DNA of 52,740 bases from Candidatus Poribacteria bacterium (GTDB lineage: Bacteria > Abyssobacteria > SURF-5), in the NCBI GenBank assembly GCA_016215705.1, contig JACRIR010000004.1, positions 1 to 52,740 on the forward strand, read 5' to 3'. This document shows, piece by piece, positions 20,618 through 44,390 of the stretch. The translations under genes and the position numbers were made by a program. The number at the start of each line of letters is the position of its first letter. Within the stretch, counting starts at the first letter, position 1. Under the pieces are notes generated by a model. The model saw only the letters and a list, made by a program, of their open reading frames with translations. It was not told the DNA's origin and did no database searches.

Positions 20618-22071
20618 TGGCACGTCCCAAGGTTCTGATAGTGGATGACCAGCAGGATATGCGCTGGACAATTCGGATGATTGTTGAGAAGGCGGAGATG
20701 GATGCCATGGAGGCAACCGACGGCGATACTGCCCTCCGGATGATCCGGTCCTCATCGCCTGACGTTGTTCTGCTGGATATCCGGATTCCCGGCATTGACG
20801 GCTATGAGGTGCTGCGCTGCGCAAAGGCGCTGAACAGTAGCCTGCCGATCATCATGATCACCGGATTCGGTGGCATTAGAGACGCCGTCCAAACGCTGAA
20901 GGCCGGCGCATGTGACTACCTGCACAAACCCTTCCAAAATGACGAGCTTGTTCTGACAATCCGCAGGGCGCTGAATGGAAACCGTCTCAAACGAGACGGC
21001 GGATATAATGGAGGCTGCAAAGAAGCGCATCTATCCCTTCACGAACAAATGGGCTACAGCGCCAGAATTCAGTCCCTGGCTTCAGAAGTGACACGCGTTG
21101 CTTCCACAGATTTTTCTGTCCTCATCGTCGGGGAAACCGGAGTGGGTAAGGAAGTCGTCGCCCAGGCGCTCCATGCCCAAAGTCGTCGACACTCCGGCAT
21201 GCTTGTTGCTATGGATTGCGGAGCAATCCCGGACACACTGATCGAAAGCGAACTGTTCGGCCACGAGAAGGGGGCATTCACAGGCGCCGACCGCGTAAAG
21301 CAGGGGAAGTTCGAGGTGGCCGCGGGTGGGACCCTGTTCTTCGACGAGATATCTAATCTCTCGCTGACGTTACAGACAAAATTGCTCCGAGTGCTACAGG
21401 AAAGGCAGTTTTATCGGGTCGGCGGCAACATGGCTATCAGGGCGGATGTCCGTATTGTGACAGCGACAAACCGAGACCTCTCCTCCCCGTCTGAGGAGTC
21501 CTCGTTCCGCAGCGACCTCTATTATCGCCTCGCTGAATACGTCATCCATGTTCCGCCCCTGCGTGACCGCAAGGAGGACATCACATTTCTCGCAAACCGC
21601 TTCTTGAAGATCACAAATCTCGAGATTGGCAAGCGTGTCAGCGAAATATCGGAACCAGCGATGGAATTGCTCGCAGGATATGATTGGCCGGGTAACGTTC
21701 GGGAGCTTCGAAACGTTGTGCGGCGGGCTGTATTATTGGCGAGCGATGTCATAGTCCCTCAGCATTTGGGTCCACTTAGACTGATGGGCACGAATGTCCT
21801 CCCATCGACACTATCGGTCGAATTCGTGAACACGGACAGAATGTCCTTCAAAGAAATCATGCGCCACAATGCCATGGACGTCGAAAGAGCTTTACTCCGC
21901 CGGGTGCTGGAACGCACTAAGGGGAACAAGGCTGAGGCCGCACGCATTCTCAAGATAGACTACAAGACCATTCATACAAGAATAAAGAAATATGCGATTT
22001 CGGTGAAGGGAGACAATCATGACAATGAGGAAAAGCAGTTCCGATGCCGGCAAGGGAGCGAGGTCCTCTGA
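20617..22071 (+). CDS. Sigma-54-dependent response regulator (NtrC family): receiver + AAA+ + HTH; GvrA-like
   Basis: GTG start with a TAGTG overlap and SD GAAGGGAAGAAGG. The receiver has VLIVDDQ...D. The AAA+ domain has GETGVGKE and the GAFTGA motif (ELFGHEKGAFTGA). A C-terminal Fis-type HTH is present. Confidence 0.85.
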   Translation: MARPKVLIVDDQQDMRWTIRMIVEKAEMDAMEATDGDTALRMIRSSSPDVVLLDIRIPGIDGYEVLRCAKALNSSLPIIMITGFGGIRDAVQTLKAGACDYLHKPFQNDELVLTIRRALNGNRLKRDGGYNGGCKEAHLSLHEQMGYSARIQSLASEVTRVASTDFSVLIVGETGVGKEVVAQALHAQSRRHSGMLVAMDCGAIPDTLIESELFGHEKGAFTGADRVKQGKFEVAAGGTLFFDEISNLSLTLQTKLLRVLQERQFYRVGGNMAIRADVRIVTATNRDLSSPSEESSFRSDLYYRLAEYVIHVPPLRDRKEDITFLANRFLKITNLEIGKRVSEISEPAMELLAGYDWPGNVRELRNVVRRAVLLASDVIVPQHLGPLRLMGTNVLPSTLSVEFVNTDRMSFKEIMRHNAMDVERALLRRVLERTKGNKAEAARILKIDYKTIHTRIKKYAISVKGDNHDNEEKQFRCRQGSEVL

Positions 22072-22552
22072 GGGTGGCATGGGGGGACTCTTCAAAGGTT
22101 TGTCCGATTTATTGGAGAAGCTGGGAGACCTTGCTGACAAAGGACAAGAACTGCAGAAAACGGGGGAATTCCGGAAGGCGGTTGGGGCGAACGACATCAA
22201 AGGTGTCTATGGCTTCAGTGTCAAAGTGGGCCTTGGCGGCGAAGGAGTGAAGGTTGAACCCTTTGGCAATATCCACAAGGACGAAGCTTCCGGTGAGACC
22301 ATCGTGCAAGAAGTGCGTGAGCCGATAGTTGACGTTTTCGAGGAAAAAACACATGTGCTGGTCGTGGCCGAGATGCCCGGCATAGGTACTGATAACCTCC
22401 AGTTGGACCTGAAGGACGATATATTGACCATCTCGGCAAATAGGGAAGATCGGAAATATCGCAAAGAAGTGCTGCTTCCCGGAACCTTCACCCGCGACAA
22501 AATGACGGTCGCTTGTCATAACGGCGTCGTAGAGATCAGATTACGCAAGTAG
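22019..22552 (+). CDS. Hsp20 / alpha-crystallin family protein (GvpH-like)
   Basis: The C-terminal alpha-crystallin domain is VDVFEEKTHVLVVAEMPGIGTDNLQLDLKDDILTISANRE...GVVEIRL. SD GAAGGGA is present. Confidence 0.75.
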   Translation: MTMRKSSSDAGKGARSSEGGMGGLFKGLSDLLEKLGDLADKGQELQKTGEFRKAVGANDIKGVYGFSVKVGLGGEGVKVEPFGNIHKDEASGETIVQEVREPIVDVFEEKTHVLVVAEMPGIGTDNLQLDLKDDILTISANREDRKYRKEVLLPGTFTRDKMTVACHNGVVEIRLRK

Positions 22553-22563
22553 GGGGTTAAGAA

Positions 22564-24708
22564 ATGGCCACGAGCGACGGCGCAACGCTCAAGCTCAGGG
22601 TGACGGAAGCCCTCAGCAAAGACGTGGGGCGGGCATTCGTCCGGATGGACCCGCAGGACCTTGAGAAATTGCATGCGCAAATCGGCGACATAGTGGAAGT
22701 CAGCGGCAAGCGACAGACGGTTGGAAAGGCGATGCCTGCGTACAAGGAGCAGCGAGGTCAGTCCCGGATCCAAATGGACGGGCTCGCGCGGGAGAATGCC
22801 GGCGTCGGCCTGGACGAACACGTGCGGGTTCGAAAGGCCGAGACGCGGAACGCCACTCGCGTCCAGCTTGCTCCCACAACCGTAACTCCGGGAAACCGGG
22901 ACCTGAAATACATTGGGGCGCTTCTCGACGGCTTGCCTGTCGTTGAGGGTGACCGGATTCGGGCTGCGCTGTTCGGCAGCCGATGGGCCGATTTTGTCGT
23001 TGAAAGCGCCACGCCCAAGGGGACGGTGCTCATTACTCCTTCGACACAACTCGTCATAGGCAAGGCAGCCGAAGAAGCCAGGACGGGAACGATTTCTTAT
23101 GAAGATGTCGGGGGACTCAAACCTCAACTCCAACGTATACGCGAGATGATCGAACTGCCTCTTCGGTACCCAGCCGTATTCCAGCGCCTCGGCATCGACG
23201 CCCCTAAGGGAGTTCTTCTTTATGGCCCTCCCGGTTGTGGCAAAACGCTTATTGCCCGCGCCATTGCGCACGAAACGGAAGCCGACTTCTTCTCGGTCAG
23301 TGGTCCCGAAATTATTCACAAATTCTACGGCGAAAGCGAAGCGCATCTCCGGAAGATTTTCGAGGAAGCCGCCCGCAAAGGGCCAAGTATTATTTTTCTC
23401 GACGAGATCGACGCCATTGCTCCTCAGAGAGAGAAAGTCGTTGGGGACGTGGAGAAAAGAGTGGTCGCCACCCTCCTGGCGCTGATGGACGGTCTTAATA
23501 AACGGCAAAACGTAATTGTCATTGCTGCAACAAACATACCTCAAATGCTCGACCCTGCGTTGCGCCGCCCCGGCCGGTTCGACCGCGAAATATCTATTCC
23601 GATACCCGATCGAAATGGACGTCGGCAAATATTGGAGATTCACAGCCGTGGGATGCCGCTGGCCGACGATATTCGACTTGATCATCTCGCCGAGATCACG
23701 CACGGCTTTGTTGGAGCCGACTTGGAGGCGTTGTGCCGCGAAGCGGCCATGATCCGCCTGCGTCACATCATCCCCGACATTGATTTTGCCATGACCAGTA
23801 TTCCCTATGATCTGTTGGCGAAGCTTGAAGTGAAGATGGAGGACTTTCTTGAAGCTTTGCGCGAAGTCGAGCCGTCAGCGATAAGGGAGGTATTTGTCGA
23901 AGTCCCGGATGTACGCTGGCAACACCTTGGCGGTCTTAGCGAGGTAAAGGCCCGGCTGATCGAGGCTGTCCAGTGGCCACTAAAATATCCGCAACTTTTC
24001 GAGAGCGCGGGGATCAAGCCTCCAAAGGGCATCCTTCTATCGGGACCACCGGGATGTGGCAAAACCATGCTGGCCAAAGCCCTTGCCACTGAGAGCGCTG
24101 TGAATTTTATTTCAGTAAAGGGCCCCTCGCTTCTCTCCAAATGGGTGGGGGAGTCGGAGAAAGGGGTACGCGAGGTTTTCCATAAAGCCAGGCAGGCGGC
24201 GCCGTGCATTGTTTTCTTCGACGAAATCGACTCTTTGATTCCTGCCCGTGGCGGTCTCTCCTCGGATTCACACGTCTCCGAGCGGGTCCTCAGCCAGTTT
24301 CTGGCCGAACTCGACGGCATCGAGGAACTCAAGGGAGTTCTGGTGCTAGGCGCCACCAATCGAGCAGATTTGCTGGACTATGCCGTCCTCCGGCCGGGAC
24401 GCTTTGACGAGGTTGTGGAGATTCCCCTGCCTGACGAAAAAGAGCGTTGCGAGATATTTGAGGTGCATTTGCGTGGCAAACCGTTAGACGCGGAGGTCGA
24501 CGCAAAACAGTTGGCAGCCATGACCGATGGACTCAGCGGCGCAGATATTTTCGGCATTTGCCATAAGGCCGCATTGGAGGCCGTGCGAAGGGCCGTGGCA
24601 AAAATCGGCGACAGCGGAAAGAACCAGGAAAACATCGGCGTGCTTATTACAAAGGATGACCTGCTCCAGGCCGCGACGCGAGAGGCGAGGACAACAACGA
24701 ATCGCTGA
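22564..24708 (+). CDS. CDC48/VAT-like AAA+ ATPase (N-domain + D1 + D2)
   Basis: N-terminal double-psi-barrel-like region, then two Walker A sites (GPPGCGKTLIARA and GPPGCGKTMLAKA), each with the SRH region. 714 aa. SD AGGGGG is present. Confidence 0.85.
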   Translation: MATSDGATLKLRVTEALSKDVGRAFVRMDPQDLEKLHAQIGDIVEVSGKRQTVGKAMPAYKEQRGQSRIQMDGLARENAGVGLDEHVRVRKAETRNATRVQLAPTTVTPGNRDLKYIGALLDGLPVVEGDRIRAALFGSRWADFVVESATPKGTVLITPSTQLVIGKAAEEARTGTISYEDVGGLKPQLQRIREMIELPLRYPAVFQRLGIDAPKGVLLYGPPGCGKTLIARAIAHETEADFFSVSGPEIIHKFYGESEAHLRKIFEEAARKGPSIIFLDEIDAIAPQREKVVGDVEKRVVATLLALMDGLNKRQNVIVIAATNIPQMLDPALRRPGRFDREISIPIPDRNGRRQILEIHSRGMPLADDIRLDHLAEITHGFVGADLEALCREAAMIRLRHIIPDIDFAMTSIPYDLLAKLEVKMEDFLEALREVEPSAIREVFVEVPDVRWQHLGGLSEVKARLIEAVQWPLKYPQLFESAGIKPPKGILLSGPPGCGKTMLAKALATESAVNFISVKGPSLLSKWVGESEKGVREVFHKARQAAPCIVFFDEIDSLIPARGGLSSDSHVSERVLSQFLAELDGIEELKGVLVLGATNRADLLDYAVLRPGRFDEVVEIPLPDEKERCEIFEVHLRGKPLDAEVDAKQLAAMTDGLSGADIFGICHKAALEAVRRAVAKIGDSGKNQENIGVLITKDDLLQAATREARTTTNR

Positions 24709-24740
24709 CCAAACAAGAGTTTTCCTGCGGGTTTCTGAAT

Positions 24741-25283
24741 ATGCCGAGATCTATTCCTCCAAAGACTATGTCGAACGTGCGCCGGCAAGCGCGCAGCCGT
24801 GACCGTTCCAGGTCGCGGCCTGGCGGCGGCCTGTATCTGAAACTCGGTGGATGTGGTTCACAGGTTTCCCGACATCGGCCTCCCACCGAGACGAAATTCA
24901 GCGCTTCGGTTTTCCGGAAGCCCCGCAGTTGGCGATTCCAAATAAAGCCGCTGTTCAAGAGGATAAGAGGACTGGGGATCGATGTCTTTCATGAGGCCGA
25001 GGAAGTGCTCATCGTCATCGACCTAGGAGGGTTCCGCCGCGGCGATGTTTCGTTGAGTATGACTCCGGAGAAATACTCGGTATATGCGAGACAAGGCGAT
25101 GAGGAGTTTAGGGAAGAAATCGTTTTGCCGCCCGACGTGGATGTCGAGCGGTCCGTGGAGAACCTGAGAAACGGAGTCCTCGAGATTCTGCTCCCAAGGA
25201 AAAAGGGAGATACACAGGAGGTGAAATCTCATGAAGACCTGCCAGCAAGGAAGAAGCCAGACAATACTAATCGTAGAAGATGA
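24741..25283 (+). CDS. Second Hsp20-like (GvpH-like) protein; the N-terminus is uncertain and may be frameshifted
   Basis: The C-terminal half (IDVFHEAEEVLIVIDLGG...VLEILLPRK) is paralogous to the alpha-crystallin domain of 22019-22552. The N-terminal 75 aa is Arg-rich low complexity with no SD. Confidence 0.45.
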   Translation: MPRSIPPKTMSNVRRQARSRDRSRSRPGGGLYLKLGGCGSQVSRHRPPTETKFSASVFRKPRSWRFQIKPLFKRIRGLGIDVFHEAEEVLIVIDLGGFRRGDVSLSMTPEKYSVYARQGDEEFREEIVLPPDVDVERSVENLRNGVLEILLPRKKGDTQEVKSHEDLPARKKPDNTNRRR

Positions 25284-25650
25284 TAAGAATGTGTATGACA
25301 CTCTTTCACAACTGCTTCGCGGCGAGGGCTACCGAACAGTCTGGGCTGAGAGTGGCGGCCAAGCGATTAAGACAATGGCGTCTGTCGCCCCTGCCCTAAT
25401 AGTCCTTGACTTGATGTTGCCCGACCGTCACGGTATCGAGGTGTTGGGCCAGATCAAGTCTATGACAAGAGACGTGCCAGTCATCATTCTGACCGGCTTT
25501 GGCTCAACGGATACGGTTCGAAGCGCCATGGAGATGGGAGCTTTTGATTACCTTACGAAGCCTTCCGATCTGAGTGAGTTTTGTGGAGTAGTTCGGGCAG
25601 CCCTCGAATCTGAACGCAGGTGTGGAGCCGCTTCACCGGCGGCGCAATAG
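25231..25650 (+). CDS. Stand-alone CheY-like receiver protein
   Basis: ILIVEDD...D(LIVLDLMLPD)...K motifs, SD GGAGG. Confidence 0.75.
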   Translation: MKTCQQGRSQTILIVEDDKNVYDTLSQLLRGEGYRTVWAESGGQAIKTMASVAPALIVLDLMLPDRHGIEVLGQIKSMTRDVPVIILTGFGSTDTVRSAMEMGAFDYLTKPSDLSEFCGVVRAALESERRCGAASPAAQ

Positions 25651-25664
25651 TCAAGGAGTGCACA

Positions 25665-26513
25665 ATGACCGACAACGGCCACAATCCGGAGGCCGGACGC
25701 GATCACGCCGAGGGCATCTATTTGTTCTGTTTTGCGCGTCAAAATGCAGCACAGGCTGTTGGGCTTCGCGGTCCGGATGACCGGAGTCCCGTGTCACAGC
25801 GGCAATTCAAAGATATCGTGGCGGTGCTGAGTAAGGTTCCTCTCGGCGAGTGGATCGGCCCTTCCTCAGAAGCAAACCTGCAAGACCTGAGTTGGGTGGG
25901 GCCTCGAGCTTGTCGACATCAAGAAATAATTGAACAGGCAATGCGATATTCCTCAGTCTTGCCGGCAAGATTCGGGACCATTTTTTCTTCCTCAGAACGA
26001 CTAGAGGATACGTTCTGCTCTCACTATGACTCGATATCCGAATTCCTCGATTATGCGGCCGATAAGGAAGAGTGGGCGCTTAAGGGCCTGTTGGATACAG
26101 CGAAGGCCGAGGATCACCTGCTTGCCCGTGGCTCTCGATCCACAAATCTCCCGCCATCTTCGGGGGCACGATATATGATGGAGAAGCAGCTTCGGATCGA
26201 GGCCAAGAGGAAAATGAAGACGTGGGCAAAAACACTAAGCGATACTATTGTCGAGGAACTTCAGCCTCTTGCGGTGGAATCACGCGCCTTGAAGACTTTG
26301 TCACGGTATGCATCGGGAAGAGAATTGGATGTGGCCTTCAACTGGGCCTTTCTCTTGACATGTGAGGGCCGAGATGGTTTCCTCTCAAGCGTAGAACGTC
26401 TCAACGATGACTACTCCCGGCATGGACTCGAACTCGAAATATCGGGGCCGTGGCCACCCTATAGTTTCTGCCCCTCCCTTTCGCATGACAAGGAACCCGA
26501 AAAGATCGAGTGA
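25665..26513 (+). CDS. gvpF: Gas vesicle protein GvpF/L family (paralog 1)
   Basis: The N-terminal YLFCFAR block and overall pattern match the two other paralogs at 26556 and 32180 and the GvpF/L family. SD AAGGAG is present; the ORF track start is 25620. Confidence 0.65.
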   Translation: MTDNGHNPEAGRDHAEGIYLFCFARQNAAQAVGLRGPDDRSPVSQRQFKDIVAVLSKVPLGEWIGPSSEANLQDLSWVGPRACRHQEIIEQAMRYSSVLPARFGTIFSSSERLEDTFCSHYDSISEFLDYAADKEEWALKGLLDTAKAEDHLLARGSRSTNLPPSSGARYMMEKQLRIEAKRKMKTWAKTLSDTIVEELQPLAVESRALKTLSRYASGRELDVAFNWAFLLTCEGRDGFLSSVERLNDDYSRHGLELEISGPWPPYSFCPSLSHDKEPEKIE

Positions 26514-26555
26514 CCACTCAGCGAGTGGCGGAGGATTTGGCGAGGGAGGGATCAA

Positions 26556-27362
26556 ATGAACGGGCCTTTCCTTGTTTATGGAGTCATCCCGACTAAACCG
26601 CTCGCACCCCCTGTGCCCTCCGCAGGAGTTGAAGGGCTTCCAGTCGAGTTGATCGAGAATGATGGGATAGGGGCAGCGGTCTCGCGTATTCATGCTATTG
26701 ACCCTGCTTTGTTGACGCCTGAGATTGGCCGTGTTCTGGCCTATGAAAAGGTAATCGAAGCATTGCACCGACTGAGCGCAGTCTTGCCTATGCGCTATGG
26801 GTGCGTTATGAAGAGTGAATCTCACGTCACCGAATTCCTCAGCAAACGCGGCCAGGACTATCAATACGCCTTGACGCATCTGGAGGGGTGCTCCGAGTAT
26901 GCGATCCGAATCCTGCTGCCACGCGGGAGCCACGAACCGCCAAACGGTGGACGGAGTATCGAAAATAGGGATCGAGCCCCCTGTCCGCCAGAGTCTCACT
27001 CCGGCAGGATGTATCTGAAAAACCGAAAGGAATACTATGCCCTGAAGGATCAATCTGCCGAGGAGGAGACTGAAGCGGTCGAGCGCTGCCGGGCCGCTTT
27101 TGCGCAGATGTACGTCGAGTGGAGGTCGGAATATTCGCCGGTTTGCCCGGCAGAGATAGCTCGCAAGCGGGTGAGCGGAGAATCCCGTAGATTTCGTGTT
27201 TCACCTGCGGCAGGAACGTCCCTGGTATCACTATATTTCTTGGTAGCAAGGGAAATGGAACAGTCCTTCATAGAACGCTTCAGGCGGCTGTGCGACACGA
27301 AATCCGCAAAGATGCTCATGACGGGTCCCTGGCCCCCATATAACTTTGTTCCACGCATGTAG
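26556..27362 (+). CDS. gvpL: Gas vesicle protein GvpF/L family (paralog 2)
   Basis: FLVYGVIP...RIHAID...VLPMRYG pattern, SD GAGGGAGGG. Confidence 0.65.
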   Translation: MNGPFLVYGVIPTKPLAPPVPSAGVEGLPVELIENDGIGAAVSRIHAIDPALLTPEIGRVLAYEKVIEALHRLSAVLPMRYGCVMKSESHVTEFLSKRGQDYQYALTHLEGCSEYAIRILLPRGSHEPPNGGRSIENRDRAPCPPESHSGRMYLKNRKEYYALKDQSAEEETEAVERCRAAFAQMYVEWRSEYSPVCPAEIARKRVSGESRRFRVSPAAGTSLVSLYFLVAREMEQSFIERFRRLCDTKSAKMLMTGPWPPYNFVPRM

Positions 27363-27376
27363 TCCGGAGACAGGAA

Positions 27377-28888
27377 ATGACACAGCATGGCGCATCACTC
27401 ACGAACAATCACGGGACCGCATCCACGGATACCCTCGTTTCTGAGGGCCGCTATGAGAAGCTTTACAGAATGCTGATGGATGCTACTCCCTCATCGGTTC
27501 TTTTGCTCGACCAGGGTCTGCGGGTAGTTGTGGCCAACCATAACTTTCTCGAGAAAGCTCAGAGGTCCGAACATGACACCATAGGCCGAAGGCTCAACGA
27601 AGTATTCCCCATCGTCATCCTCCGCGAAATGGAGTTGGAGCAATGGATACAGCAGGTTTTCCAGAAAGGAGAGCCTGTGCGAGGCAAGCGCATGCGCTAT
27701 AGGGCGCCCGGGGTTGCGGACCGGATTTATTATTACAGTCTCATCCCTGTAACGTGGCATAGAAAGACCGAGAACGTGATGTTGCTCATGGATGATGTCA
27801 CGGAACAGGTGCGCCTGGGTGAGGAAGTGCTGCAGGCGGAACGCCATCTGGCAAGCATAGTCGAAAGCGCCAGCGACATTATTGTCTCGACCGATACTGA
27901 AGGACGCATCATGACGTGGAACAAGGCGGCTCAAGAGGCTACTGACTACTGTCTGCAGGAAGTCGCACACCATCCATTTTTTGATTTCTTTGCTTCAGAC
28001 TGCAAGACCGCAGTGAAAGGAGCCCTCGAGAATCCAGAGAGCCCCGGAAGGTCCGCATACACTGAGTGGAACCTCAAGACGAAACGTGGCCACGAGATAC
28101 CCGTCTCATGGGTGTGCTCCAGGATGAGGGATGGCAGAGGCAAGGTTCAAGGGATTGTGGCGGTCGGCAGGGACCTCACCGAACGCCGTAAACTGGAGAC
28201 CCAGGTGCTTCAGTCGCAGAAGCTGGCCGCACTGGGTGTCATGGCCGGAGGCATTGCCCACGAGATTCGAGGACCTCTGGCGATTGCTTCTTCGGCGGCG
28301 CAGTTTCTGATGGAAGATGAGGTCAGCCCTTCGCTCCTGATAGAGTGTACTCAGAGAATTCATCGAGGGATCCAGAGGGCGTCCACTATCATCGAAGACC
28401 TGCTGAGATTCTCGCGGCCCTCCATTCCCAAGAAGCCTACTGAAAGAGTCGATCTCGCGCTGGTTGTGAAAGATACCATCGCGCTTGTCCACAGCCAGGC
28501 TCAGATCGAGAAGGTCAATGTGACCGTCAAGGCGCCCGCTGCGCCGGTAATTGTTACAGGCGTTGCCAGCATGCTTCAACAGATGGTGATGAACATCCTA
28601 CTGAATGCATTTAACGCTCTGTCCGATGACGGCGGCAGAGTGGACGTTATCGTAAGTGACGAAGGCGAGTTTGCGGTCTTGAAAGTAACCGATAATGGCT
28701 GCGGCATTCCGCAAAGCGAGATTAACAAGATATTCGACCCGTTCTACACCACAAGCCCGCCGGGGAAAGGCACAGGATTGGGTCTTTCTCTTTGCTACTC
28801 CATCGTTAGACATCACAATGGAACTATTCAGGTTGAGAGCACGGAAGGAGCAGGCACCTCCTTGATCGTCCGACTGTCCTTGTCGTGA
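27377..28888 (+). CDS. PAS-domain sensor histidine kinase (GvrB-like)
   Basis: Two PAS-like regions, an H-box (HEIRGPLA), and N / G1 / G2 boxes (DNGCGIP, GTGLGLS). Confidence 0.85.
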   Translation: MTQHGASLTNNHGTASTDTLVSEGRYEKLYRMLMDATPSSVLLLDQGLRVVVANHNFLEKAQRSEHDTIGRRLNEVFPIVILREMELEQWIQQVFQKGEPVRGKRMRYRAPGVADRIYYYSLIPVTWHRKTENVMLLMDDVTEQVRLGEEVLQAERHLASIVESASDIIVSTDTEGRIMTWNKAAQEATDYCLQEVAHHPFFDFFASDCKTAVKGALENPESPGRSAYTEWNLKTKRGHEIPVSWVCSRMRDGRGKVQGIVAVGRDLTERRKLETQVLQSQKLAALGVMAGGIAHEIRGPLAIASSAAQFLMEDEVSPSLLIECTQRIHRGIQRASTIIEDLLRFSRPSIPKKPTERVDLALVVKDTIALVHSQAQIEKVNVTVKAPAAPVIVTGVASMLQQMVMNILLNAFNALSDDGGRVDVIVSDEGEFAVLKVTDNGCGIPQSEINKIFDPFYTTSPPGKGTGLGLSLCYSIVRHHNGTIQVESTEGAGTSLIVRLSLS

Positions 28889-28907
28889 CAGCGGTGTGTG
28901 AAACAAC

Positions 28908-29285
28908 ATGACCCGCAAACACGAGATGATCCTGATCGTTGATGATGAACCGGATATGTGCTGGGCCCTCGAGAGAATTCTCAGAGGGATGGGTTTCGCC
29001 ACGGAAACCGTCGGCGACGCGCAAAAAGCGCTCGGGCTGGTCAAACGGACCCGCTTCAGATTGGCCTTCCTCGACGCCAAGCTTCCCGATATGGAGGGTA
29101 TCGACCTGGCAATATGCCTGCAAAAAGCCATTCCGCCCGTGCCCGTCGTGCTGGTTTCGGCTTACTTCTATGAAGATGATGCGCAAGTCCAGCAGTGGAT
29201 CAGAGACGGATTCATATGTCATTTTGTGAGCAAGCCCTTTGTGATCAACCGCGTGCGGGAAGCGGCAGCCATGGCCATCAACTAA
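28908..29285 (+). CDS. Receiver-domain response regulator (GvrC-like)
   Basis: ILIVDDEPD...D(AKLPD) pattern, 125 aa. Confidence 0.7.
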   Translation: MTRKHEMILIVDDEPDMCWALERILRGMGFATETVGDAQKALGLVKRTRFRLAFLDAKLPDMEGIDLAICLQKAIPPVPVVLVSAYFYEDDAQVQQWIRDGFICHFVSKPFVINRVREAAAMAIN

Positions 29286-29320
29286 TTTGAGCAAGAGCCG
29301 CATGCTCATGCATTACGGCT

Positions 29321-29356
29321 TATGGAACTTTCACCCTATATGGAACGCCTTCCATA
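29321..29356 (+). promoter_or_regulatory. Candidate enhancer (UAS) for the NtrC-type activator: TATGGAAC direct repeat plus TATGGAA-cgcc-TTCCATA palindrome
   Basis: TATGGAAC occurs at 29321-29328 and 29339-29346. The inverted partner TTCCATA is at 29350-29356. The element lies 110-145 bp upstream of the -24/-12 element. Confidence 0.45.
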
Positions 29357-29464
29357 GATTCTCAGAAAGGATCACCCATCTTCGGTCCTGTCCTCCGACT
29401 GTCTCAAAGTCCTTACCGCTTGTCCCATCCGGTGTTACCGAGATAGATGTTGGTTCGCCGCCAA

Positions 29465-29480
29465 TGGCATACCTATTGCT
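29465..29480 (+). promoter_or_regulatory. Sigma-54 (-24/-12) promoter for gvpA: TGGCAT-accta-TTGCT
   Basis: The GG and GC dinucleotides are spaced exactly as in the consensus TGGCACG-N4-TTGCA. It sits 120 nt upstream of the gvpA ATG, and a sigma-54 activator is encoded in the locus. Confidence 0.6.
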
Positions 29481-29601
29481 TCCTCCGTTGTTACTCTCTG
29501 GAATTTCACAGTTTTGTCCGGATGGGAACGTTGCGGCCGCAGTCGTCATCCCATGGGTTCCAGAAGGATCGCCTTTTGGTGACGGAGGGAGGTGAGAATC
29601 T

Positions 29602-29820
29602 ATGGCGAAAGTACAGAAGTCAACTGACAGCTCCAGCCTCGCGGAAGTTGTGGACCGCATTCTGGACAAGGGCATCGTGATCGATGCTTGGGCGAAGGTC
29701 TCGTTGGTGGGCATCGAGCTCCTTTCCATCGAGGCGCGCGTGGTCATCGCTTCAGTGGAGACCTACTTGAAGTATGCGGAGGCTATCGGCCTGACTGCCA
29801 GCGCCGCTGCGCCGGCCTAA
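29602..29820 (+). CDS. gvpA: Gas vesicle structural protein GvpA
   Basis: 72 aa. [52 protein letters not shown] is a near-canonical GvpA. SD GGAGGGAGG is present. Confidence 0.95.
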
Positions 29821-29847
29821 CCGTTAAGAGTGCACGAAAGCCTGTTG

Positions 29848-29880
29848 CCAGGCGGGGCCTCATATGGTGTCCCCGCCTGG
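29848..29880 (+). terminator. GC-rich hairpin immediately after gvpA (CCAGGCGGGG-13 nt-CCCCGCCTGG); likely attenuator or partial terminator
   Basis: Perfect 10-bp stem read directly from the sequence. There is no strong U-tract. Read-through would reach gvpC/gvpN. Confidence 0.5.
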
Positions 29881-30024
29881 CTTCCGGCTTGGCCTTCGCA
29901 CGTGATCCGGCAGAGATTCCGCGCACAAGGCGCAACCTTATGGGCGCGTCGGCATATCGTCGATCGTGGTCCTGAACATATAATCGATCTTTGTCCCAAC
30001 CGCAATGGGAGAAGGAGTGGCAAA

Positions 30025-30573
30025 ATGGGGCCTCTGACACAAGATTTGGCGCGGCTGCGCGATGAGATTACATCCGCGCGCGATGCGCGAAAGCAGCTCA
30101 TTGGCAGTGTGAAGGAGTTCGTCGGCAACCTCAAGGAATCCGTCGACGATTTGACATCGAACGCGGCTGCAATGCGGGCCGATTTTCGCAAAACCCACGC
30201 CGCGACAGTCAGGAAGGCGAAGGCGGAGCTTTCGGGATGCGTGTCCGACATAAAGCGCAACGTCTCGTCGATGCAATCCGCCTTCCGCAACGCGAACACT
30301 GAGGCGGCCAGAAAGACGAAGGCCGATTGCGCAGCTTTTGCGTCCGGCGTGAGACAGACGGTGGCTGGCATAAAACGGGCGACTGCAAGAACGAGGAAAG
30401 AAGTCGCAGCCGACATCAACGGCGCGCACCGCGCCTGGTTAGGCGCCCGGCCGACACGGATCGAGGTCGTGCACAAGCCCGAGCTCCACCGGACGGAGAC
30501 GGTGGCAAGAGTCGGGAGCCGATCCGAAGAGTCAGAGAAGCGTGTTTCCGCCAAAACCAAGAAGAGGAGGTAA
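30025..30573 (+). CDS. gvpC: GvpC-like outer gas-vesicle protein with about four 33-residue repeats
   Basis: It sits between gvpA and gvpN, the canonical position. An ATG with SD AGGAG is present. The repeats align at a 33-aa period (xxxVxD[LI]xxNxxxMxxxFRxxxxxxxRKxKA). The ORF track start at 29830 lacks an SD. Confidence 0.6.
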   Translation: MGPLTQDLARLRDEITSARDARKQLIGSVKEFVGNLKESVDDLTSNAAAMRADFRKTHAATVRKAKAELSGCVSDIKRNVSSMQSAFRNANTEAARKTKADCAAFASGVRQTVAGIKRATARTRKEVAADINGAHRAWLGARPTRIEVVHKPELHRTETVARVGSRSEESEKRVSAKTKKRR

Positions 30574-30636
30574 TCACATAGTCTCCCCCGAGGCAGTCAA
30601 TATAGGCGCACGAGAACATGCCGTGCATGATGACGA

Positions 30637-31674
30637 ATGGTTAACGACTTGGGAATCGCAAAGGAATCTGTGAAAATGAACCGGGATGGCTTGACGGCGA
30701 GCGCATCGGCGACCACCGTGAGGATTCAGGTAGAGGGTGACGGAATCATGCCGGAACCGAGCGATGAGTTTGTCATGACGCCGCGCCTTGAGGAGCTGAC
30801 TGAACGTGCTCTCACTTATCTGGAAGTGGGATACCCTGTCCATTTTGCCGGTCCGGCGGGAACAGGGAAAACTACAATCGCCTTCCACGTCGCGAGCAAG
30901 CTGGGCCGACCCGTGATCCTCATTCACGGGGATGACGAGTTTGGCGGTTCCGATCTGGTGGGAAAGGACGCCGGCTACCGCAAGTCAAGACTTGTCGACA
31001 ATTTTATTCATTCCGTTCTCAAAACAGAGGAAGAGATGAGAACGCTATGGGTGGATAACCGGCTCACCACTGCTTGCCAGCATGGTTACACTCTTGTATA
31101 CGACGAGTTTAACCGAACGAGGCCTGAGGCCAACAATGCCCTCTTGAGTATTCTCTCGGAAAAAATGCTCAACCTGCCGAAGCTCCGAACCTCTGGCGAA
31201 GGCTATATGGAAGTGCATCCCAACTTCCGCGCCATTTTCACTTCGAATCCGGAAGAATATGCGGGCACCCACAAGACCCAGGATGCTCTTATGGATCGGC
31301 TCATTACCATCAGGCTCGGCCACTACGACCGCGAGACTGAAATCGCAGTCACAATGGCCAAGTCGGGCATCTCGAAAAAAGATGCCGAAATCATCGTGGA
31401 CATCGTCAGGGAACTGAGAGGTGTCGGCGTAAACAACAACCGGCCAACCATCCGGGCCTGTATCGTGATCGCCAAGGTGCTCGCACATCGTGGAATCCGG
31501 GCGCGGGCGGGCAACCCCGTTTTCAGGCGCATCTGCCAGGACGTGCTAAGTGGAATAGACACAGCCAAAGTCACCTGTGGCGGCCAATCGCTCATGCCGC
31601 AAAAAGTGGATGAAGCCACCCGGAAAGTGGTGCAAGCGGTCCTCAGAACGGATGAAATCAACGAGAAGGAATAG
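30637..31674 (+). CDS. gvpN: Gas vesicle AAA+ ATPase GvpN
   Basis: Walker A (GPAGTGKTT), the CbbQ/NorQ-type AAA core, and gvpN synteny. The alternative start at 30676 (MNRDG) has SD AAGGA. Confidence 0.85.
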   Translation: MVNDLGIAKESVKMNRDGLTASASATTVRIQVEGDGIMPEPSDEFVMTPRLEELTERALTYLEVGYPVHFAGPAGTGKTTIAFHVASKLGRPVILIHGDDEFGGSDLVGKDAGYRKSRLVDNFIHSVLKTEEEMRTLWVDNRLTTACQHGYTLVYDEFNRTRPEANNALLSILSEKMLNLPKLRTSGEGYMEVHPNFRAIFTSNPEEYAGTHKTQDALMDRLITIRLGHYDRETEIAVTMAKSGISKKDAEIIVDIVRELRGVGVNNNRPTIRACIVIAKVLAHRGIRARAGNPVFRRICQDVLSGIDTAKVTCGGQSLMPQKVDEATRKVVQAVLRTDEINEKE

Positions 31675-31677
31675 GAT

Positions 31678-31995
31678 ATGGCGATTCCAAAGAACAACGT
31701 ACGCGGCCTGCAAAACATTCGCACCTTTTCGGGAGCCGCGGAAAGCACGCATGAACCTTACAGGGCATATATGAAGGTCACCTGCCTCGAAATGGAGAAA
31801 GCCCGCCGAAAGGTGGAACGAGACAACGCGATTTCCACGATGAGAAATATTGATGCGCGCCTTCAGGAAATCGAGGCCGAAAAAGCAAGGCTCCTTCAGA
31901 CCTCTGCCGAGCAAAGGCAACAGGATATCGAGGCGCTGCCCAATTCCTCGCCTCGACGGGGCAATAATGCGGGTGCGTTCAGGCTGAAGTATTGA
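31678..31995 (+). CDS. Small coiled-coil hypothetical protein of the gvp locus
   Basis: 105 aa. SD AAGGAA is present, and the start is 4 nt after the gvpN stop. The sequence is charged and helical, with no recognisable family. Confidence 0.4.
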   Translation: MAIPKNNVRGLQNIRTFSGAAESTHEPYRAYMKVTCLEMEKARRKVERDNAISTMRNIDARLQEIEAEKARLLQTSAEQRQQDIEALPNSSPRRGNNAGAFRLKY

Positions 31996-32179: not shown

Positions 32180-32995
32180 ATGGGAAATAAACAAAATCGC
32201 GTGTTGGTCGGAAGAGGCGGGTCCGTTGCGCACACGACGGCGCAGGCGGAAACCAGTCGGCTGATCTACTTGTACGCAATAATAGGCGGAGCCGACGCAT
32301 GTCAGGGGTATGATCTCGCTGGTATTGATGGCCGCGTCGTCCAATGTATCTCCATCGGTCCGGTGGCGGCCGTCGTCAGTGAGACTCCCGGCGGGAAAAT
32401 GCGCCCTGAGCGCCGTCACCTCGCAGCCCATCACCAGGTGCTCAAACGGCTCATGGAGAAAAGCACCCCTTTGCCAATGGCTTTCGGCATCATTGCGGAC
32501 GGCCCCGGGGATATTGAAAGAATCCTGTCCTTGAACAGGGAGGTCCTTGTCGAACAACTCGAACGCGTTGGCGGAAAAGTCGAGATGAGCGTCAGAGTTC
32601 TCTGGGACGTTCCGAACATCTTCGAGTTCTTCGTCAATGTCCACCCCGAGCTGAAGGCGTTGCGCGACCGATTCTTCAGGGGCGGTCATGAGCCATCGCA
32701 CGACGACAAGATCGGGTTGGGTCGGCTGTTTGACCGTTTGATGAACGAAGACCGCGCAACTCACACTGACTGCGTGGTCAATCTCCTCAGCTCGAGATGC
32801 TGTGAAATCAAGGAGAACAAGCCCCGAACGGAGTGTGAGGTGATGAACCTGGCATGTCTGATTCGCCGGGACGCTCAAAAGGATTTTGAGGACGGCATCT
32901 TTGAAACTGCAAAGCTCTTCGACAACAACTACTCCTTTGACTTCGGCGGCCCGTTTCCCCCACACAGTTTTGCGGAAATAAACCTGCAGATGTGA
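32180..32995 (+). CDS. gvpF: Gas vesicle protein GvpF/L family (paralog 3)
   Basis: LIYLYAIIGG...AAHHQVLKRLME...LPMAFG pattern, SD GAAGGGA. Confidence 0.7.
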   Translation: MGNKQNRVLVGRGGSVAHTTAQAETSRLIYLYAIIGGADACQGYDLAGIDGRVVQCISIGPVAAVVSETPGGKMRPERRHLAAHHQVLKRLMEKSTPLPMAFGIIADGPGDIERILSLNREVLVEQLERVGGKVEMSVRVLWDVPNIFEFFVNVHPELKALRDRFFRGGHEPSHDDKIGLGRLFDRLMNEDRATHTDCVVNLLSSRCCEIKENKPRTECEVMNLACLIRRDAQKDFEDGIFETAKLFDNNYSFDFGGPFPPHSFAEINLQM

Positions 32996-33017: not shown

Positions 33018-33302
33018 ATGTTCATAGTCGATGACATACTGTTGTTCCCCGTGCGCAGTCTGCTCTTTGTTCTTCGCGGAATTCACAAGGCCGCCAGAGA
33101 GGAAATCGAAAACGAGGCGGAATCCATAAGAAGAGAACTCACCGACTTGTACATGATGTTGGAGACCGGAAGGATCAGCGAGGAGGAGTTCCAGGCGCAG
33201 GAGCAAGAATTGCTGGATCGACTCGAGGATGCCGAGTTTCACGGCACGGAGGTTGAAGACGACCAGCCCGAGTCCCTGGGGACCGATGAAATCGAAATGT
33301 GA
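33018..33302 (+). CDS. gvpG: Gas vesicle protein GvpG
   Basis: MFIVDDILLFPVRSLLFVLRGIHKAA...EEFQAQEQELLDRLEDAE matches the conserved GvpG N-terminus (MFILDDLF...). Confidence 0.75.
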   Translation: MFIVDDILLFPVRSLLFVLRGIHKAAREEIENEAESIRRELTDLYMMLETGRISEEEFQAQEQELLDRLEDAEFHGTEVEDDQPESLGTDEIEM

Positions 33303-33309
33303 GGTTGAA

Positions 33310-35283
33310 ATGTCTGAAGGCGCGGTGGCGCACAAGGCATACGCCGCGACACCGACGAGGATGCCTGTATTCCTGCTGGAAACGGGGCTCAGGCTGCTCC
33401 TTTTTGGCGGCAAAGGTGGCGTGGGAAAAACCACCTGTGCCGTTGCCACAGCTCTTTATTTGTCCGCACGTTTTCCGGATGATAACGTCCTTCTGGTCTC
33501 CACCGACCCTGCTCATTCATTGAGGGATAGTTTGGGTGAATCCGTTCTCCCTCGAAATCTTGAACCTCTCGAGATCGACTCACGTGAGTGTCTTAGAAAA
33601 TTCAAGGAGGCTCATGTCGAGCACCTTCGCCAAATCGCCCTGCGGGGCACTTTTCTTGACAACGAGGACGTGTCGCAACTCTTGGATTTGTCTATGCCCG
33701 GCCTGGATGAGGTCATGGCGTTTAACGAGATTTCCACTCTTGTGCAGACGGGTGTCTACTCGCGCGTCATCGTTGACACGGCGCCAACGGGCCACACGCT
33801 CCGGCTGCTCGAATTGCCGGAGACTTTGAACAACTGGCTCCGTGCTCTTGACGCCATGCTGGCCAAGCATCGGTACATGGTGCAACTGTACCAAGGTTCT
33901 TATCGCAAGGATGAGGTAGACATCTTCTTGCTCGACCTTGCCAGGTCGATCGAAAACCTTTCCTCGCTCTTGCGTGATTCGGCCCACTGCCGTTTTGTCC
34001 CGGTCATGCTTCCCGAATGCCTGAGCACAAACGAGACCATGCGGTTGGTGCGCCAACTGGAGGCCATGAGAATCCCGGTGACTGATATCCTGGTCAACCG
34101 CGTCCGTCCTCTGGTTGGCCGATGCCCGGTATGCCGGTCTGTGGCGGACCGCCAAAGCATGGAACTTGAAACAGTGCTGAACGAATTCTCCTCCTATTCC
34201 GTCTGGGGCCTACCCCTTCGCTGCGTGGAAGCGCGCGGAGCAGAGCAACTGAGCATTTTCTTTAACAGCATTTGGCAAGTCCACAGATTCAACGGGGAAA
34301 TGCATGATTCGACGAGACTATTCCCCCGTGTTGAACACCCGGCCGAATTGCCGGGCCATGACATCTCGCTTTTGATCTTCGCAGGTAAGGGAGGGGTCGG
34401 CAAAACCACACTCGCATGTGCGACAGCGCTCCGTCTGGCTCGAGAGTATCCTGACAAAAGGATTCTGCTCCTTTCAACCGACCCGGCTCATTCGCTCTCT
34501 GACTGCCTGAACACAAGTGTGGGAGCGGGGGAAACACCTCTGCGGCCGTGTCTGACTGCAGTCGAGATCGATGCCGTGGCTGAATTTGAGGAATTGAAGA
34601 GGCAGTACGGCGATGAGGTCGGCAAAGTGTTCGATTCCCTCGCTGGACGCACCATGATCCAGTTGGAATTCGACCAGGAAGTCATGAAACGCATGTTGGA
34701 CCTTTCTCCTCCGGGGCTTGATGAGGTCATGGCGCTGACCAGAGCTATGAGACTTCTGCAAGCCCGGAAGTATGATATCTTTGTCTTCGATACGGCGCCC
34801 ACCGGTCATCTTATCCGGTTGCTGGAACTGCCCGAAATCATCGAGAAGTGGCTCAAGGTCTTCTTCGGTCTGTTCCTGAAGTATCGGGAAGTGTTTCGGT
34901 TGCCCAAGATCGCTGAGCGCCTGGTCGCCATGTCCAAGGAAGTCAAACTGTTGCGATCTTTGTTGGCAGACCCGCAAAAGGGACAGATTTACGCGGTAAG
35001 CATCTTGACGGAGATGGCTCTCGAGGAAACACGAGACCTCCTTGCATCATGCGCCCAAACCGGCATCCGCGTGCCGGCGCTTTTTCTTAATCTGGTCACT
35101 TCGGCTAATGATTGTCCCACGTGCCATCGCCTCGCCGAATCTGAATCAAGGGTCCGTAGACAATTCGACGAGTGCTTCAGAGAGTTACACCAGACAGTGG
35201 TGTTCCACGGTCCGGAACCACGGGGAGGCGACCATCTGTCCGAGTTGGGACAAGTTCTGTATGAGGTTGCAGCAAACTATTAG
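33310..35283 (+). CDS. Tandem-fused ArsA/GET3-family ATPase (two P-loop halves, each with the DTAPTGH signature and a CxxC)
   Basis: Two deviant Walker A motifs (GKGGVGKTT) are present. The signature DTAPTGHTLRLLELPE / DTAPTGHLIRLLELPE occurs twice, and each half has a CxxC (CPVCRS, CPTCHR). SD GAGG is present. The start at 33310 is in frame with ORF track 33229. Confidence 0.8.
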   Translation: MSEGAVAHKAYAATPTRMPVFLLETGLRLLLFGGKGGVGKTTCAVATALYLSARFPDDNVLLVSTDPAHSLRDSLGESVLPRNLEPLEIDSRECLRKFKEAHVEHLRQIALRGTFLDNEDVSQLLDLSMPGLDEVMAFNEISTLVQTGVYSRVIVDTAPTGHTLRLLELPETLNNWLRALDAMLAKHRYMVQLYQGSYRKDEVDIFLLDLARSIENLSSLLRDSAHCRFVPVMLPECLSTNETMRLVRQLEAMRIPVTDILVNRVRPLVGRCPVCRSVADRQSMELETVLNEFSSYSVWGLPLRCVEARGAEQLSIFFNSIWQVHRFNGEMHDSTRLFPRVEHPAELPGHDISLLIFAGKGGVGKTTLACATALRLAREYPDKRILLLSTDPAHSLSDCLNTSVGAGETPLRPCLTAVEIDAVAEFEELKRQYGDEVGKVFDSLAGRTMIQLEFDQEVMKRMLDLSPPGLDEVMALTRAMRLLQARKYDIFVFDTAPTGHLIRLLELPEIIEKWLKVFFGLFLKYREVFRLPKIAERLVAMSKEVKLLRSLLADPQKGQIYAVSILTEMALEETRDLLASCAQTGIRVPALFLNLVTSANDCPTCHRLAESESRVRRQFDECFRELHQTVVFHGPEPRGGDHLSELGQVLYEVAANY

Positions 35284-35395
35284 TATATGGCCATAAGAGT
35301 ATTCATGGGTTTTAGGGCGTGCTCTTAGCGGGCGTGGTTTGCTGATGTCGCCTGCAAAGAGGGGCCCTTCTGGGCAATACTCTAAGGAGAGATCG

Positions 35396-35707
35396 ATGGA
35401 AGGAAAGAACTCGAATCCGGCTGGCGTTAGGGAGGCTGTCACAAATACCGACCTATCACCTGCAGCGACGCCACAGCCTTCGGAGGCTCAGTCGCGCGTG
35501 CTGGCTCGTCTTCTCGGTATGGCCGATCGATATCGCTCTGAAGACGCTCTGTGCCAGGCCGCGGACATATGCTTTGACCTCATAGAAAACCATGAGCACT
35601 CTCCTGAGGCCGGGCGGGCGCGCGAGCATCTGATGGAAATAGCCGAGCACTACGAAAACGGCGGCCAGCGCCGTCTGGCGCGACACCTCTATGAAAGACT
35701 ACTGTGA
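35396..35707 (+). CDS. Small acidic hypothetical protein of the gvp locus
   Basis: 103 aa from the ATG with SD AAGGAGAG. No family recognised. Confidence 0.4.
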   Translation: MEGKNSNPAGVREAVTNTDLSPAATPQPSEAQSRVLARLLGMADRYRSEDALCQAADICFDLIENHEHSPEAGRAREHLMEIAEHYENGGQRRLARHLYERLL

Positions 35708-35972
35708 AATGGGCGGCGATAGTTCGCATGCGCGTCCTCCGCTCGATGAACGAGATCATATATCGCTGTGTGAGACGCTGGATCGCGTTCTCAATAAGGG
35801 GGTTGTCGTCGCCGGCGATATCGTGATATCGGTCGCGGACGTCGATCTCATATATCTCGGCCTTCGACTTGTTCTGAGTTCCGTCGAGACAGCAAGGCGC
35901 GTGGGCGCGATAGATGATGTGCGTGAGAGAAAGAGTGTGAAGCATGAATGCCTGCCAACGACCCAAAGCTGA
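35691..35972 (+). CDS. gvpM: GvpA-family minor protein (GvpJ/GvpM-like)
   Basis: The conserved core LCETLDRVLNKGVVVAGDIVISVADVDLIYLGLRLVLSSVE matches the GvpA/J/M fold motif. Confidence 0.65.
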   Translation: MKDYCEMGGDSSHARPPLDERDHISLCETLDRVLNKGVVVAGDIVISVADVDLIYLGLRLVLSSVETARRVGAIDDVRERKSVKHECLPTTQS

Positions 35973-42780: not shown

Positions 42781-42793
42781 ATTTGTCTTCTGC

Positions 42794-43537: not shown

Positions 43538-43605
43538 TACTCGCTAATCTGTGCCCTTCGCAAATGATGAATGAGAGAATTCATCATTCCGCATTCATCG
43601 TAAAC

Positions 43606-44373: not shown

Positions 44374-44390
44374 ATCAAAGACATTAAGCG

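Follow-up and report, generated by a model that had tools for sequence, protein, structure and literature searches.

ArsA homologues of about 640 amino acids (aa) with two domains were reported by Castillo and Saier in 2010 from inside the gas-vesicle (gvp) gene clusters of four phyla (PMC2963123). The cases came from Polaribacter irgensii, Pelodictyon luteolum, Geobacter uraniireducens, Anabaena variabilis / Nostoc PCC 7120 and an acidobacterium; arsR was lacking near the genes, and the authors proposed that the proteins power a biogenic step of the gas vesicle other than the one served by GvpN (PMC2963123). In 2017, a phylogenetic-profile study found a cyanobacterial ArsA that co-evolves with eight gas-vesicle proteins (PMC5464585). 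The gvp-linked lineage is not mentioned in the survey of the Get3 family by Barlow et al. in 2023 (PMC10248533), and the literature that we searched held no paper joining 'gas vesicle' and 'Get3' and no experimental work on the gvp-linked ArsA lineage. Here we describe a tandem ATPase of this kind, encoded at 33310-35283 on the plus strand of a window (the whole stretch of DNA analysed) of 52,740 nucleotides (nt) from contig JACRIR010000004.1, part of the metagenome-assembled genome (MAG) of a Candidatus Poribacteria bacterium (GCA_016215705.1); all positions are those of the window. The gene is a Poribacteria MAG member of the lineage described by comparative genomics in 2010. The first-pass annotation of this DNA had presented the ATPase as a new type of accessory factor, which was wrong given the report of Castillo and Saier and the cyanobacterial study. 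A Get3-like chaperone mechanism for the gvp-linked ArsA proteins, argued by analogy, is plausible and did not appear in the literature searched.

The ATPase is, with high confidence, a gas-vesicle-dedicated and non-arsenical member of the Get3/ArsA family. The case is carried by its family membership, its separation from the arsenical ArsA proteins, its Get3-type features and a conserved linkage to gvp genes. The fuller statement that we favour, namely a gvp-dedicated fused Get3/ArsA (SIMIBI) ATPase acting through a chaperone cycle as an accessory of gas-vesicle assembly, we judge to have an even chance of being right, and the specific cycle, taken from related proteins, to stand slightly short of that. 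The gene and its motifs are placed as follows.

33310..35283, plus strand: tandem (pseudo-dimeric) ArsA/Get3-family ATPase, 657 aa (translation, Pfam, TIGR00345, AlphaFold2, fold matches)
33409..33435, plus strand: N-half deviant Walker A motif (P-loop) GKGGVGKTT, residues 34-42 (motif location; invariant in 40 homologues)
33499..33519, plus strand: N-half switch I STDPAHS, residues 64-70 (motif location; invariant in 40 homologues)
33775..33822, plus strand: N-half switch II, the ArsA-Get3 signature DTAPTGHTLRLLELPE, residues 156-171 (motif location)
33835-33855 and 34864-34881, plus strand: clade motif W..L..(A/L)K(H/Y)R in the helix after switch II, residues 176-188 and 514-525 (alignment)
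34123..34134, plus strand: N-half CxxC, CPVC, residues 272-275 (Get3 structure alignment; 40 homologues)
34384..34410, plus strand: C-half P-loop GKGGVGKTT, residues 359-367 (motif location; invariant in 40 homologues)
34474..34494, plus strand: C-half switch I STDPAHS, residues 389-395 (motif location)
34789..34836, plus strand: C-half switch II DTAPTGHLIRLLELPE, residues 494-509 (motif location; 40 homologues)
35113..35124, plus strand: C-half CxxC, CPTC, residues 602-605 (shared MAFFT column; 40 homologues)

The open reading frame (ORF) contains no internal stop. An alternative in-frame ATG at 33229 would overlap gvpG, and the start at 33310 is favoured because GAGG lies 6 nt 5' of it, the N-termini of the ATPase homologues agree with it, and the resulting product is identical (100% identity and coverage) to the NCBI-annotated P0001 ('ArsA family ATPase [Candidatus Poribacteria bacterium]'). 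GKGGVGKT, DPAHS and DTAPTGH occur in each half and do not vary among 40 homologues (52-66% identity), the signature following the consensus DTAPTGH(T/L)(L/I)RLLELPE. Switch II is followed in the N-half by a helical insert bearing the clade motif AKHRY and in the C-half by the hydrophobic helix WLKVFFGLFLKYR. Both halves thus retain the P-loop, the two switches and the A-loop in intact form: the N-half A-loop PLRCVEARG was aligned to PLLRTEAKG of the M. jannaschii Get3 (MjGet3), and the C-half A-loop is GEPRG, in which G639 is nearly invariant among homologues. Judged by these motifs, both nucleotide sites are apparently competent.

The Pfam model ArsA_ATPase (PF02374) matched the product twice (E = 1e-118, 396.5 bits against a cut-off of 24.3), and TIGR00345, the model of the TRC40/GET3/ArsA superfamily, gave 395.8 bits against a cut-off of 135, with about 200 bits for each half alone. 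The AlphaFold2 model was confident (predicted local distance difference test, pLDDT, 83.7; predicted TM-score, pTM, 0.83) and has the ArsA/Get3 pseudo-dimer fold; in it the N-half CxxC stands at the N-terminus of helix 273-292 and the C-half CxxC at the N-terminus of helix 603-622. The first-pass annotation had read the gene as two complete, fused halves of GET3/ArsA type, each with GKGGVGKTT, the signature and a CxxC pair, and this description was confirmed by the translation, the exact location of every named motif, both superfamily models and the predicted structure. Searched with Foldseek at full length, the model matched tandem ArsA (closed ArsA at the top, target-normalised TM-score 0.78) and Chlamydomonas reinhardtii ArsA1 (CrArsA1); searched by half, it matched Get3 folds with target-normalised TM-scores of 0.7-0.8. 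The top rank of an arsenical ArsA was rejected as functional evidence, being explained by the shared tandem build.

The deviant Walker A motif of SIMIBI proteins is also that of ParA/MinD-like ATPases, one of which could space or segregate gas vesicles, and weak matches to ParA, CbiA and MinD were indeed obtained. These matches covered the P-loop only and remained far from the cut-offs (56.6 bits against 180 for ParA_partition, 30 against 213 for minD), the full-length fold and the signature motifs are those of ArsA/Get3, and neither an adaptor gene nor an amphipathic membrane or DNA-binding tail was evident. A positioning ATPase is therefore disfavoured, and we consider it very improbable.

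Two features of the ATPase recall Get3. In Get3 proteins such as those of Giardia (7spy) and M. jannaschii (3ug6), the CxxC coordinates the hinge zinc. The N-half CPVC aligns residue for residue with the CxxC of both these proteins, the motif that lies at the zinc hinge of Get3 (PMC10248533). In the MAFFT alignment the C-half CPTC shares its column with the N-half CxxC and with the CxxC of archaeal single-domain Get3 homologues; a sequence search of the PDB with the last 107 residues of the C-half returned no match at E <= 0.01, so that it is the MAFFT column that speaks for homology of the C-half motif. Both CxxC motifs are invariant in the 40 homologues, and CxxC occurs in both halves of 10 of the more distant gvp-linked proteins. 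From this pattern the pair is predicted to bind zinc.

The second feature is the insert after switch II, which corresponds to the Get3 motif or TRC40 insert. In length and hydrophobic content, compared here by composition only, it is nearer Get3 than ArsA.

Gvp-linked proteins: insert of 57-64 aa, 33-40% large hydrophobic residues
Archaeal Get3: insert of 69 aa, 34% large hydrophobic residues
Arsenical ArsA: insert of 38-50 aa, 26-29% large hydrophobic residues

Basic conserved residues break the hydrophobic stretch of the insert. In the N-half K186, H187 and R188 are invariant, and in the C-half WLKVFFGLFLKYR is nearly so; this marked asymmetry suggests that the two sides of the putative binding surface could have distinct roles. 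The K-[HY]-R motif is found about 23 residues after DTAPTGH in all gvp-linked halves, those of the Chlorobiaceae and Lyngbya proteins included, and is absent from Get3 and arsenical ArsA.

The possibility that the protein is a bona fide arsenite/antimonite pump ATPase, placed among gvp genes by chance, has in its favour the Pfam name, the source annotations ('arsenite-transporting ATPase') and a tandem architecture like that of E. coli ArsA. It can be set against several independent results. The arsenical-pump equivalog TIGR04291 gave 178.1 bits for the ATPase against a cut-off of 650, which was passed by the control tandem proteins of four other loci (L019, L028, L037 and L045, 749-918 bits). 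The metalloid-binding cysteines, which we take to be Cys113, Cys172 and Cys422 of the E. coli protein (in SGAC, GASC and SPC contexts), are replaced: in an alignment with the arsenical ArsA of L037 their positions read LSMPGLDE / LSPPGLDE, and the GASCLG segment of that protein gives way to a different and longer helix, LAKHRYM. Pfam scans of the larger ORFs (about 50) in the 52.7-kb window found no arsR, arsB/acr3, arsC or arsD, as the first-pass annotation had stated.

A neighbour-joining tree of 129 half-domains (100 bootstraps) agreed. The split that joins the arsenical N- and C-halves and leaves all gvp-linked halves outside was recovered in 100/100 bootstraps, so that the ATPase does not group with bona fide arsenite-pump ArsA, the grouping that the first-pass annotation had named, along with a lack of CxxC in orthologues, as contrary to its reading. 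Because the gvp-linked halves lie outside this clade, the tandem fusion would have arisen separately from that of arsenical ArsA, which depends on the root of the tree. Monophyly of all gvp-linked halves appeared in the best tree, but in only 10/100 bootstraps, and the shared K-[HY]-R motif supports a single gvp-linked family despite this value; we base the family case on that motif and on the exclusion from the arsenical clade, not on the monophyly of the halves. Together with a gvp context that is kept across phyla, these results effectively refute the arsenite pump, to which we assign next to no probability. The view that the protein is Get3-like and not part of an arsenic pump has thus stood, on the TIGR04291 failure, the replaced cysteines, the tree and the N-half CxxC alignment.

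To gauge the linkage to gas-vesicle genes, a genome collection was scanned with a generic P-loop pattern; the 80 ArsA-family loci listed are a sample, not a census, and served as a control. Linkage was scored by tblastn with the Gvp proteins of the window as gvp genes within 10 kb. Among the loci listed, 16 of the 18 most similar to the ATPase (at least 180 bits) have gvp genes within this distance, the remaining two being a 3-kb contig without flank and a Lyngbya locus whose sole relevant neighbour is Cdc48-like. No gvp gene was found near any of the 62 lower-scoring loci listed, which comprise arsenical ArsA, archaeal Get3 and other single-domain relatives. The linked loci listed belong to Gemmatimonadota, Chloroflexota (Anaerolineales, Dehalococcoidales), several classes of Acidobacteriota, Myxococcota, Rokubacteria, an unclassified deltaproteobacterium and Chlorobiaceae. 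On long contigs, three close homologues share the order gvpF - gvpG - ATPase - (small ORF) - gvpJ - gvpK - gvpJ, with Cdc48 and Hsp20 genes nearby, and a GvpF/L gene adjoins the ATPase in nearly all related loci. A second scan, of metagenomes, was seeded with GvpA and recovered close relatives only (78-100% GvpA identity); it measures how frequent the gene is in sibling clusters, not in gvp clusters generally. The ATPase was present in 15 of the 23 metagenomic loci of at least 9 kb, and four more were truncated or organised differently.

Two further forms were seen in these scans. The Lyngbya sp. MAG (L006, 8050-12004) encodes a tandem homologue of 703 aa that has the K-H-R clade motif and no CxxC; its gene stands in divergent orientation beside one for a Cdc48-like protein, and gvp genes are lacking within 10 kb, which suggests that the pairing of an ArsA-like protein with Cdc48 can exist apart from gvp genes. 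In the gas-vesicle clusters of two Chlorobiaceae MAGs (L012, 10001-10930; L013, 4313-5251) a single-domain ATPase of 312-321 aa lies between Hsp20 and Cdc48 genes, keeps only the second CxxC cysteine and has the clade motif WKYRY; this form may resemble the state before the fusion, or may be a secondary split.

In the window itself, the ATPase gene stands in a string of gvp genes on the same strand.

20518..31995, plus strand: upstream part of the gvp cluster (Pfam scans)
32180..32995, plus strand: gvpF (GvpL/GvpF family), the upstream neighbour (Pfam PF06386, E 3e-55)
33018..33302, plus strand: gvpG (Pfam PF05120, E 1.5e-17), its stop codon 7 nt before the ATPase start
35339..35707, plus strand: small conserved TPR-like ORF, 122 aa, TTG start, directly 3' of the ATPase (homologues, hidden Markov model)
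35691-35972, plus strand: gvpJ/M-like gene (GvpA family; Pfam Gas_vesicle)
35944-36291, plus strand: gvpK (Pfam GvpK)
36304-36633, plus strand: gvpJ-like gene (GvpA family; Pfam Gas_vesicle)

The Pfam matches bear out the neighbours named in the first-pass annotation, gvpF and gvpG upstream and gvpJ/M, gvpK and gvpJ downstream. The ORF at 35339-35707, between the ATPase and the first gvpJ-like gene, had gone unmentioned there. Its product is 40-46% identical to those of the ORFs in the same position at L081 and L083 and has a C-terminal TPR-like hairpin, the L083 copy scoring above the cut-off of Pfam TPR_14. By hidden Markov model the ORF was found at nine loci besides the window, each with the ATPase, and many ATPase loci are without it; the co-occurrence is not significant, only three of the nine (L102, L123 and L151) coming from the sample that was not selected by ArsA. 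The product could be a co-chaperone or adaptor.

The upstream part of the cluster encodes, in order, a sigma-54 activator, an Hsp20/GvpH-like protein, a Cdc48-like AAA+ protein, a second Hsp20-like protein and a response regulator; then two gvpL/F genes, a histidine kinase, a response regulator and gvpA (29602-29820); and finally a coiled-coil protein, a gvpN-like AAA+ protein and a small ORF. This gene order recurs in L081, L084 and many metagenomic loci. The Cdc48-like gene (22564-24708, plus strand) encodes a double AAA+ ATPase with CDC48_N and CDC48_2 domains, and the Hsp20/GvpH-like genes lie on either side of it (22019-22552 and 24741-25283, plus strand), the first of them with a weak match to Pfam ArsA_HSP20. 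Most related gvp clusters contain the Hsp20-Cdc48-Hsp20 module as a whole (22019-25283), whether or not they carry the ATPase.

Taking Get3/TRC40 and the fused chloroplast factor CrArsA1 as models, we infer for the ATPase both a class of client and a chaperone and hand-off cycle that includes closure about a hinge. Binding of ATP would close the two halves about this hinge, which the two CxxC motifs would probably form together as an intramolecular Zn(Cys)4 site. In the closed state the helical inserts after switch II would form a composite binding surface and shield an aggregation-prone hydrophobic segment of a gas-vesicle protein, candidate clients being GvpA, GvpJ or GvpM with their hydrophobic cores, or GvpG with its N-terminal helix. 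Hydrolysis of ATP would open the protein and release the client to the assembly machinery, likely the flanking GvpF/L proteins. The role of the ATPase would be that of an accessory that improves or conditions assembly, not that of a core structural requirement. The Hsp20 and Cdc48-like genes of the same clusters are consistent with a role in proteostasis. A more elaborate form of this reading would be a GET-like, ATP-driven capture and delivery of gas-vesicle shell subunits instead of membrane proteins, with GvpA/J/M or the GvpG helix handed to GvpF/L; we put it forward tentatively and think it rather unlikely in full. Its partners, again by analogy, may be the TPR-like protein (compare Sgt2 or Get4) together with the cluster Hsp20 and the Cdc48-like unfoldase.

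Several observations weigh against the chaperone reading. A C-terminal transmembrane anchor was found in no cluster protein, so that the canonical type of Get3 client is missing, and the most hydrophobic 19-residue stretches, which lie at the GvpG N-terminus and in the GvpJ and GvpA cores, have Kyte-Doolittle scores of no more than 1.7-1.95. The conserved residues of the insert include the basic K-H-R motif and do not form a purely hydrophobic groove, and similarity of fold cannot separate Get3-like from ArsA-like function. The CxxC pair, in which the first-pass annotation saw the mark of Get3, holds throughout the 40 close homologues, but it is degenerate or deleted in the gvp-linked proteins of L007, L009 and L014, and the Chlorobiaceae keep a single cysteine of it. 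Judged by these sequences, the predicted zinc hinge is dispensable in some lineages, which plausibly fits a covalently fused pseudo-dimer, as CrArsA1 illustrates. Finally, at least four of the 23 metagenomic loci (L126, L127, L139 and L146) have the same synteny and lack the ATPase, gvpG being followed directly by gvpJ or gvpK, and to our knowledge the well-studied clusters of Halobacterium, Bacillus megaterium and Serratia make vesicles without it. The placement of the gene in other gvp loci, which the first-pass annotation had made a test of its idea, came out mixed: the linkage held at 16 of the 18 top loci listed and at 15 of 23 siblings and failed at these four. Since sibling clusters of the same synteny do without the gene, the ATPase is a frequent accessory and not a core gvp gene. 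The GvpA proteins of the four loci are at least 90% identical, and the loci offer natural presence/absence pairs.

An alternative is a mechanical or energising ATPase that is no chaperone and acts on GvpF/L or GvpG, for example in remodelling a nucleation complex or in insertion at the growing seam. This corresponds to the generic proposal by Castillo and Saier of an energised step distinct from that of GvpN (PMC2963123). A gvpF/L paralogue is almost always adjacent, in the window the gene and gvpG, 7 nt apart, probably share a transcript and may be coupled in translation (in L081 their frames overlap), and the conserved basic K-H-R of the insert suggests a protein-protein interface. However, the known mechanisms of the family consist in the capture of a client or ligand between the halves, we know of no ArsA/Get3 member that works as a remodelling motor, and the dispensability of the gene in sibling clusters fits a helper better than a core motor. 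We regard such an assembly motor as improbable, while retaining it as one of the two alternatives with some weight.

The other is a holdase and quality-control factor that is switched by stress or redox state and independent of ATP, in which oxidation of the CxxC frees the zinc and yields a general chaperone; it would work with the Hsp20 proteins and the Cdc48-like unfoldase on misassembled Gvp aggregates and would deliver no subunits. The CxxC is conserved in the 40 homologues, and the CXXC has been implicated in the oxidation-regulated chaperone function of Get3 (PMC10248533). Hsp20/GvpH-like and Cdc48-like genes are present in most of the clusters, the Chlorobiaceae have the order Hsp20 - ArsA - Cdc48, the Lyngbya homologue stands in divergent orientation beside a Cdc48-like gene with no gvp genes near, and a rubrerythrin gene closes the cluster of the window. 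On the other side, the full conservation of the two nucleotide sites speaks for a cycle driven by ATP, several gvp-linked orthologues are without CxxC, and Cdc48 occurs in clusters both with and without the ATPase. We think this holdase unlikely, though worth keeping in mind, and prefer the ATP-driven, Get3-style chaperone.

The rubrerythrin just mentioned (36839-37381, plus strand) has an N-terminal rubredoxin-like domain and is the last gene of the same-strand gvp string, with which it may be co-transcribed; to connect it with the CxxC ATPase through redox chemistry would be speculation. Directly after gvpA, in the place of gvpC in other clusters, lies a gene for a 247-aa coiled-coil protein (29830-30573, plus strand) with weak apolipoprotein-like and V-SNARE-like matches and no match to GvpC; weak homologues follow gvpA in several related loci, and the protein may be a non-homologous analogue of an outer-surface stiffener. 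The regulators of the cluster (20518-22071 and 25231-29285, plus strand) comprise a sigma-54 activator with a receiver domain, a PAS histidine kinase and two single-domain response regulators, an embedded arrangement that resembles gvrA/gvrB/gvrC of Serratia sp. ATCC 39006. Scans of the window for promoters and terminators gave sites no more numerous than in shuffled sequence. Beyond the gvp string, a 1054-aa beta-helix protein is encoded at 37396-40560, and an unrelated respiratory module occupies 40564-50037 on the minus strand. It comprises a molybdopterin oxidoreductase of 975 aa, a 4Fe-4S subunit, an EB_dh-type haem subunit, a NarJ-like chaperone, a cytochrome b and a multi-haem cytochrome c, a layout that is that of a type II enzyme of the DMSO-reductase family and not of an Arr or Aio arsenic enzyme.

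Gas vesicles are in use as acoustic and magnetic resonance imaging (MRI) reporter genes, and for many natural gvp clusters assembly does not succeed in a foreign host. How the extremely hydrophobic GvpA stays soluble and enters the growing shell is a question for which the ATPase offers a concrete chaperone candidate. The model clusters of Halobacterium, Bacillus megaterium, Anabaena flos-aquae and Serratia, as far as we know, lack the ATPase, and a widespread Get3-type ATPase was overlooked by experimentalists because it is missing from them. If the favoured reading is true, the Get3 mechanism would extend from lipid membranes to a protein-shelled organelle, and the ArsA/Get3 family would contain a second, independent tandem fusion. 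The discovery value of the window is limited, since the gene-context association has been published since 2010.

Compared with known systems, the ATPase shares with arsenical ArsA (E. coli R773, 1f48; L. ferriphilum, 9nbw) the tandem architecture and the overall fold at 22-24% identity; it differs in its longer and more hydrophobic insert, its separate clade, the absence of arsB/acr3/arsD/arsR neighbours and the absence of the metalloid cysteines. Get3d (NosAFP; All4481, 3igf), from photosynthetic bacteria and plants, is likewise a bacterial Get3 fold with a proposed chaperone role, and it is fused to an alpha-crystallin (Hsp20-like) domain, whereas the Hsp20 genes of the window are separate members of the cluster. 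Unlike the window protein, Get3d is single-domain, is without CXXC and often lacks the A-loop (PMC10248533), and the NosAFP model gave the window protein 110 bits against a cut-off of 325.

The best sequence match in the PDB was CrArsA1 (5zme/5zmf; 2e-65 for 5zme), ahead of arsenical ArsA. Like the ATPase, CrArsA1 is a fused pseudo-dimer and no arsenic pump, being a targeting factor for tail-anchored proteins of the chloroplast. In contrast to the ATPase, it lacks the cysteines of the CxxC site in both halves and has no K-[HY]-R in the aligned stretch, and its clients are chloroplast membrane proteins. With Get3/TRC40 (2woj, 3ug6, 7spy) the ATPase has in common the P-loop, both switches, the A-loop, and CxxC at the position of the zinc hinge, and its insert after switch II resembles that of Get3 in length and hydrophobic content. 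The differences are that the window protein is a fused tandem of two diverged halves where Get3 is a homodimer, that no partners of the Get1/2 or Get4/5 type are evident, that no tail-anchored client is encoded nearby in the cluster, and that the insert carries the basic K-[HY]-R which Get3 is without.

The closest described proteins remain those of Castillo and Saier. Their paper does not include the phylum of Candidatus Poribacteria, makes no remark on paired CxxC motifs, a Get3-type insert or a Get3-like chaperone, and reports no experiments (PMC2963123). In every descriptive respect the window protein agrees with their group (Clusters 4 and 6): it has two ArsA domains within about 640 aa (about 600-650), its gene lies in a gvp cluster among gvpF/L, G, J, K, N and hsp20, and arsR and other ars genes are not nearby (PMC2963123).

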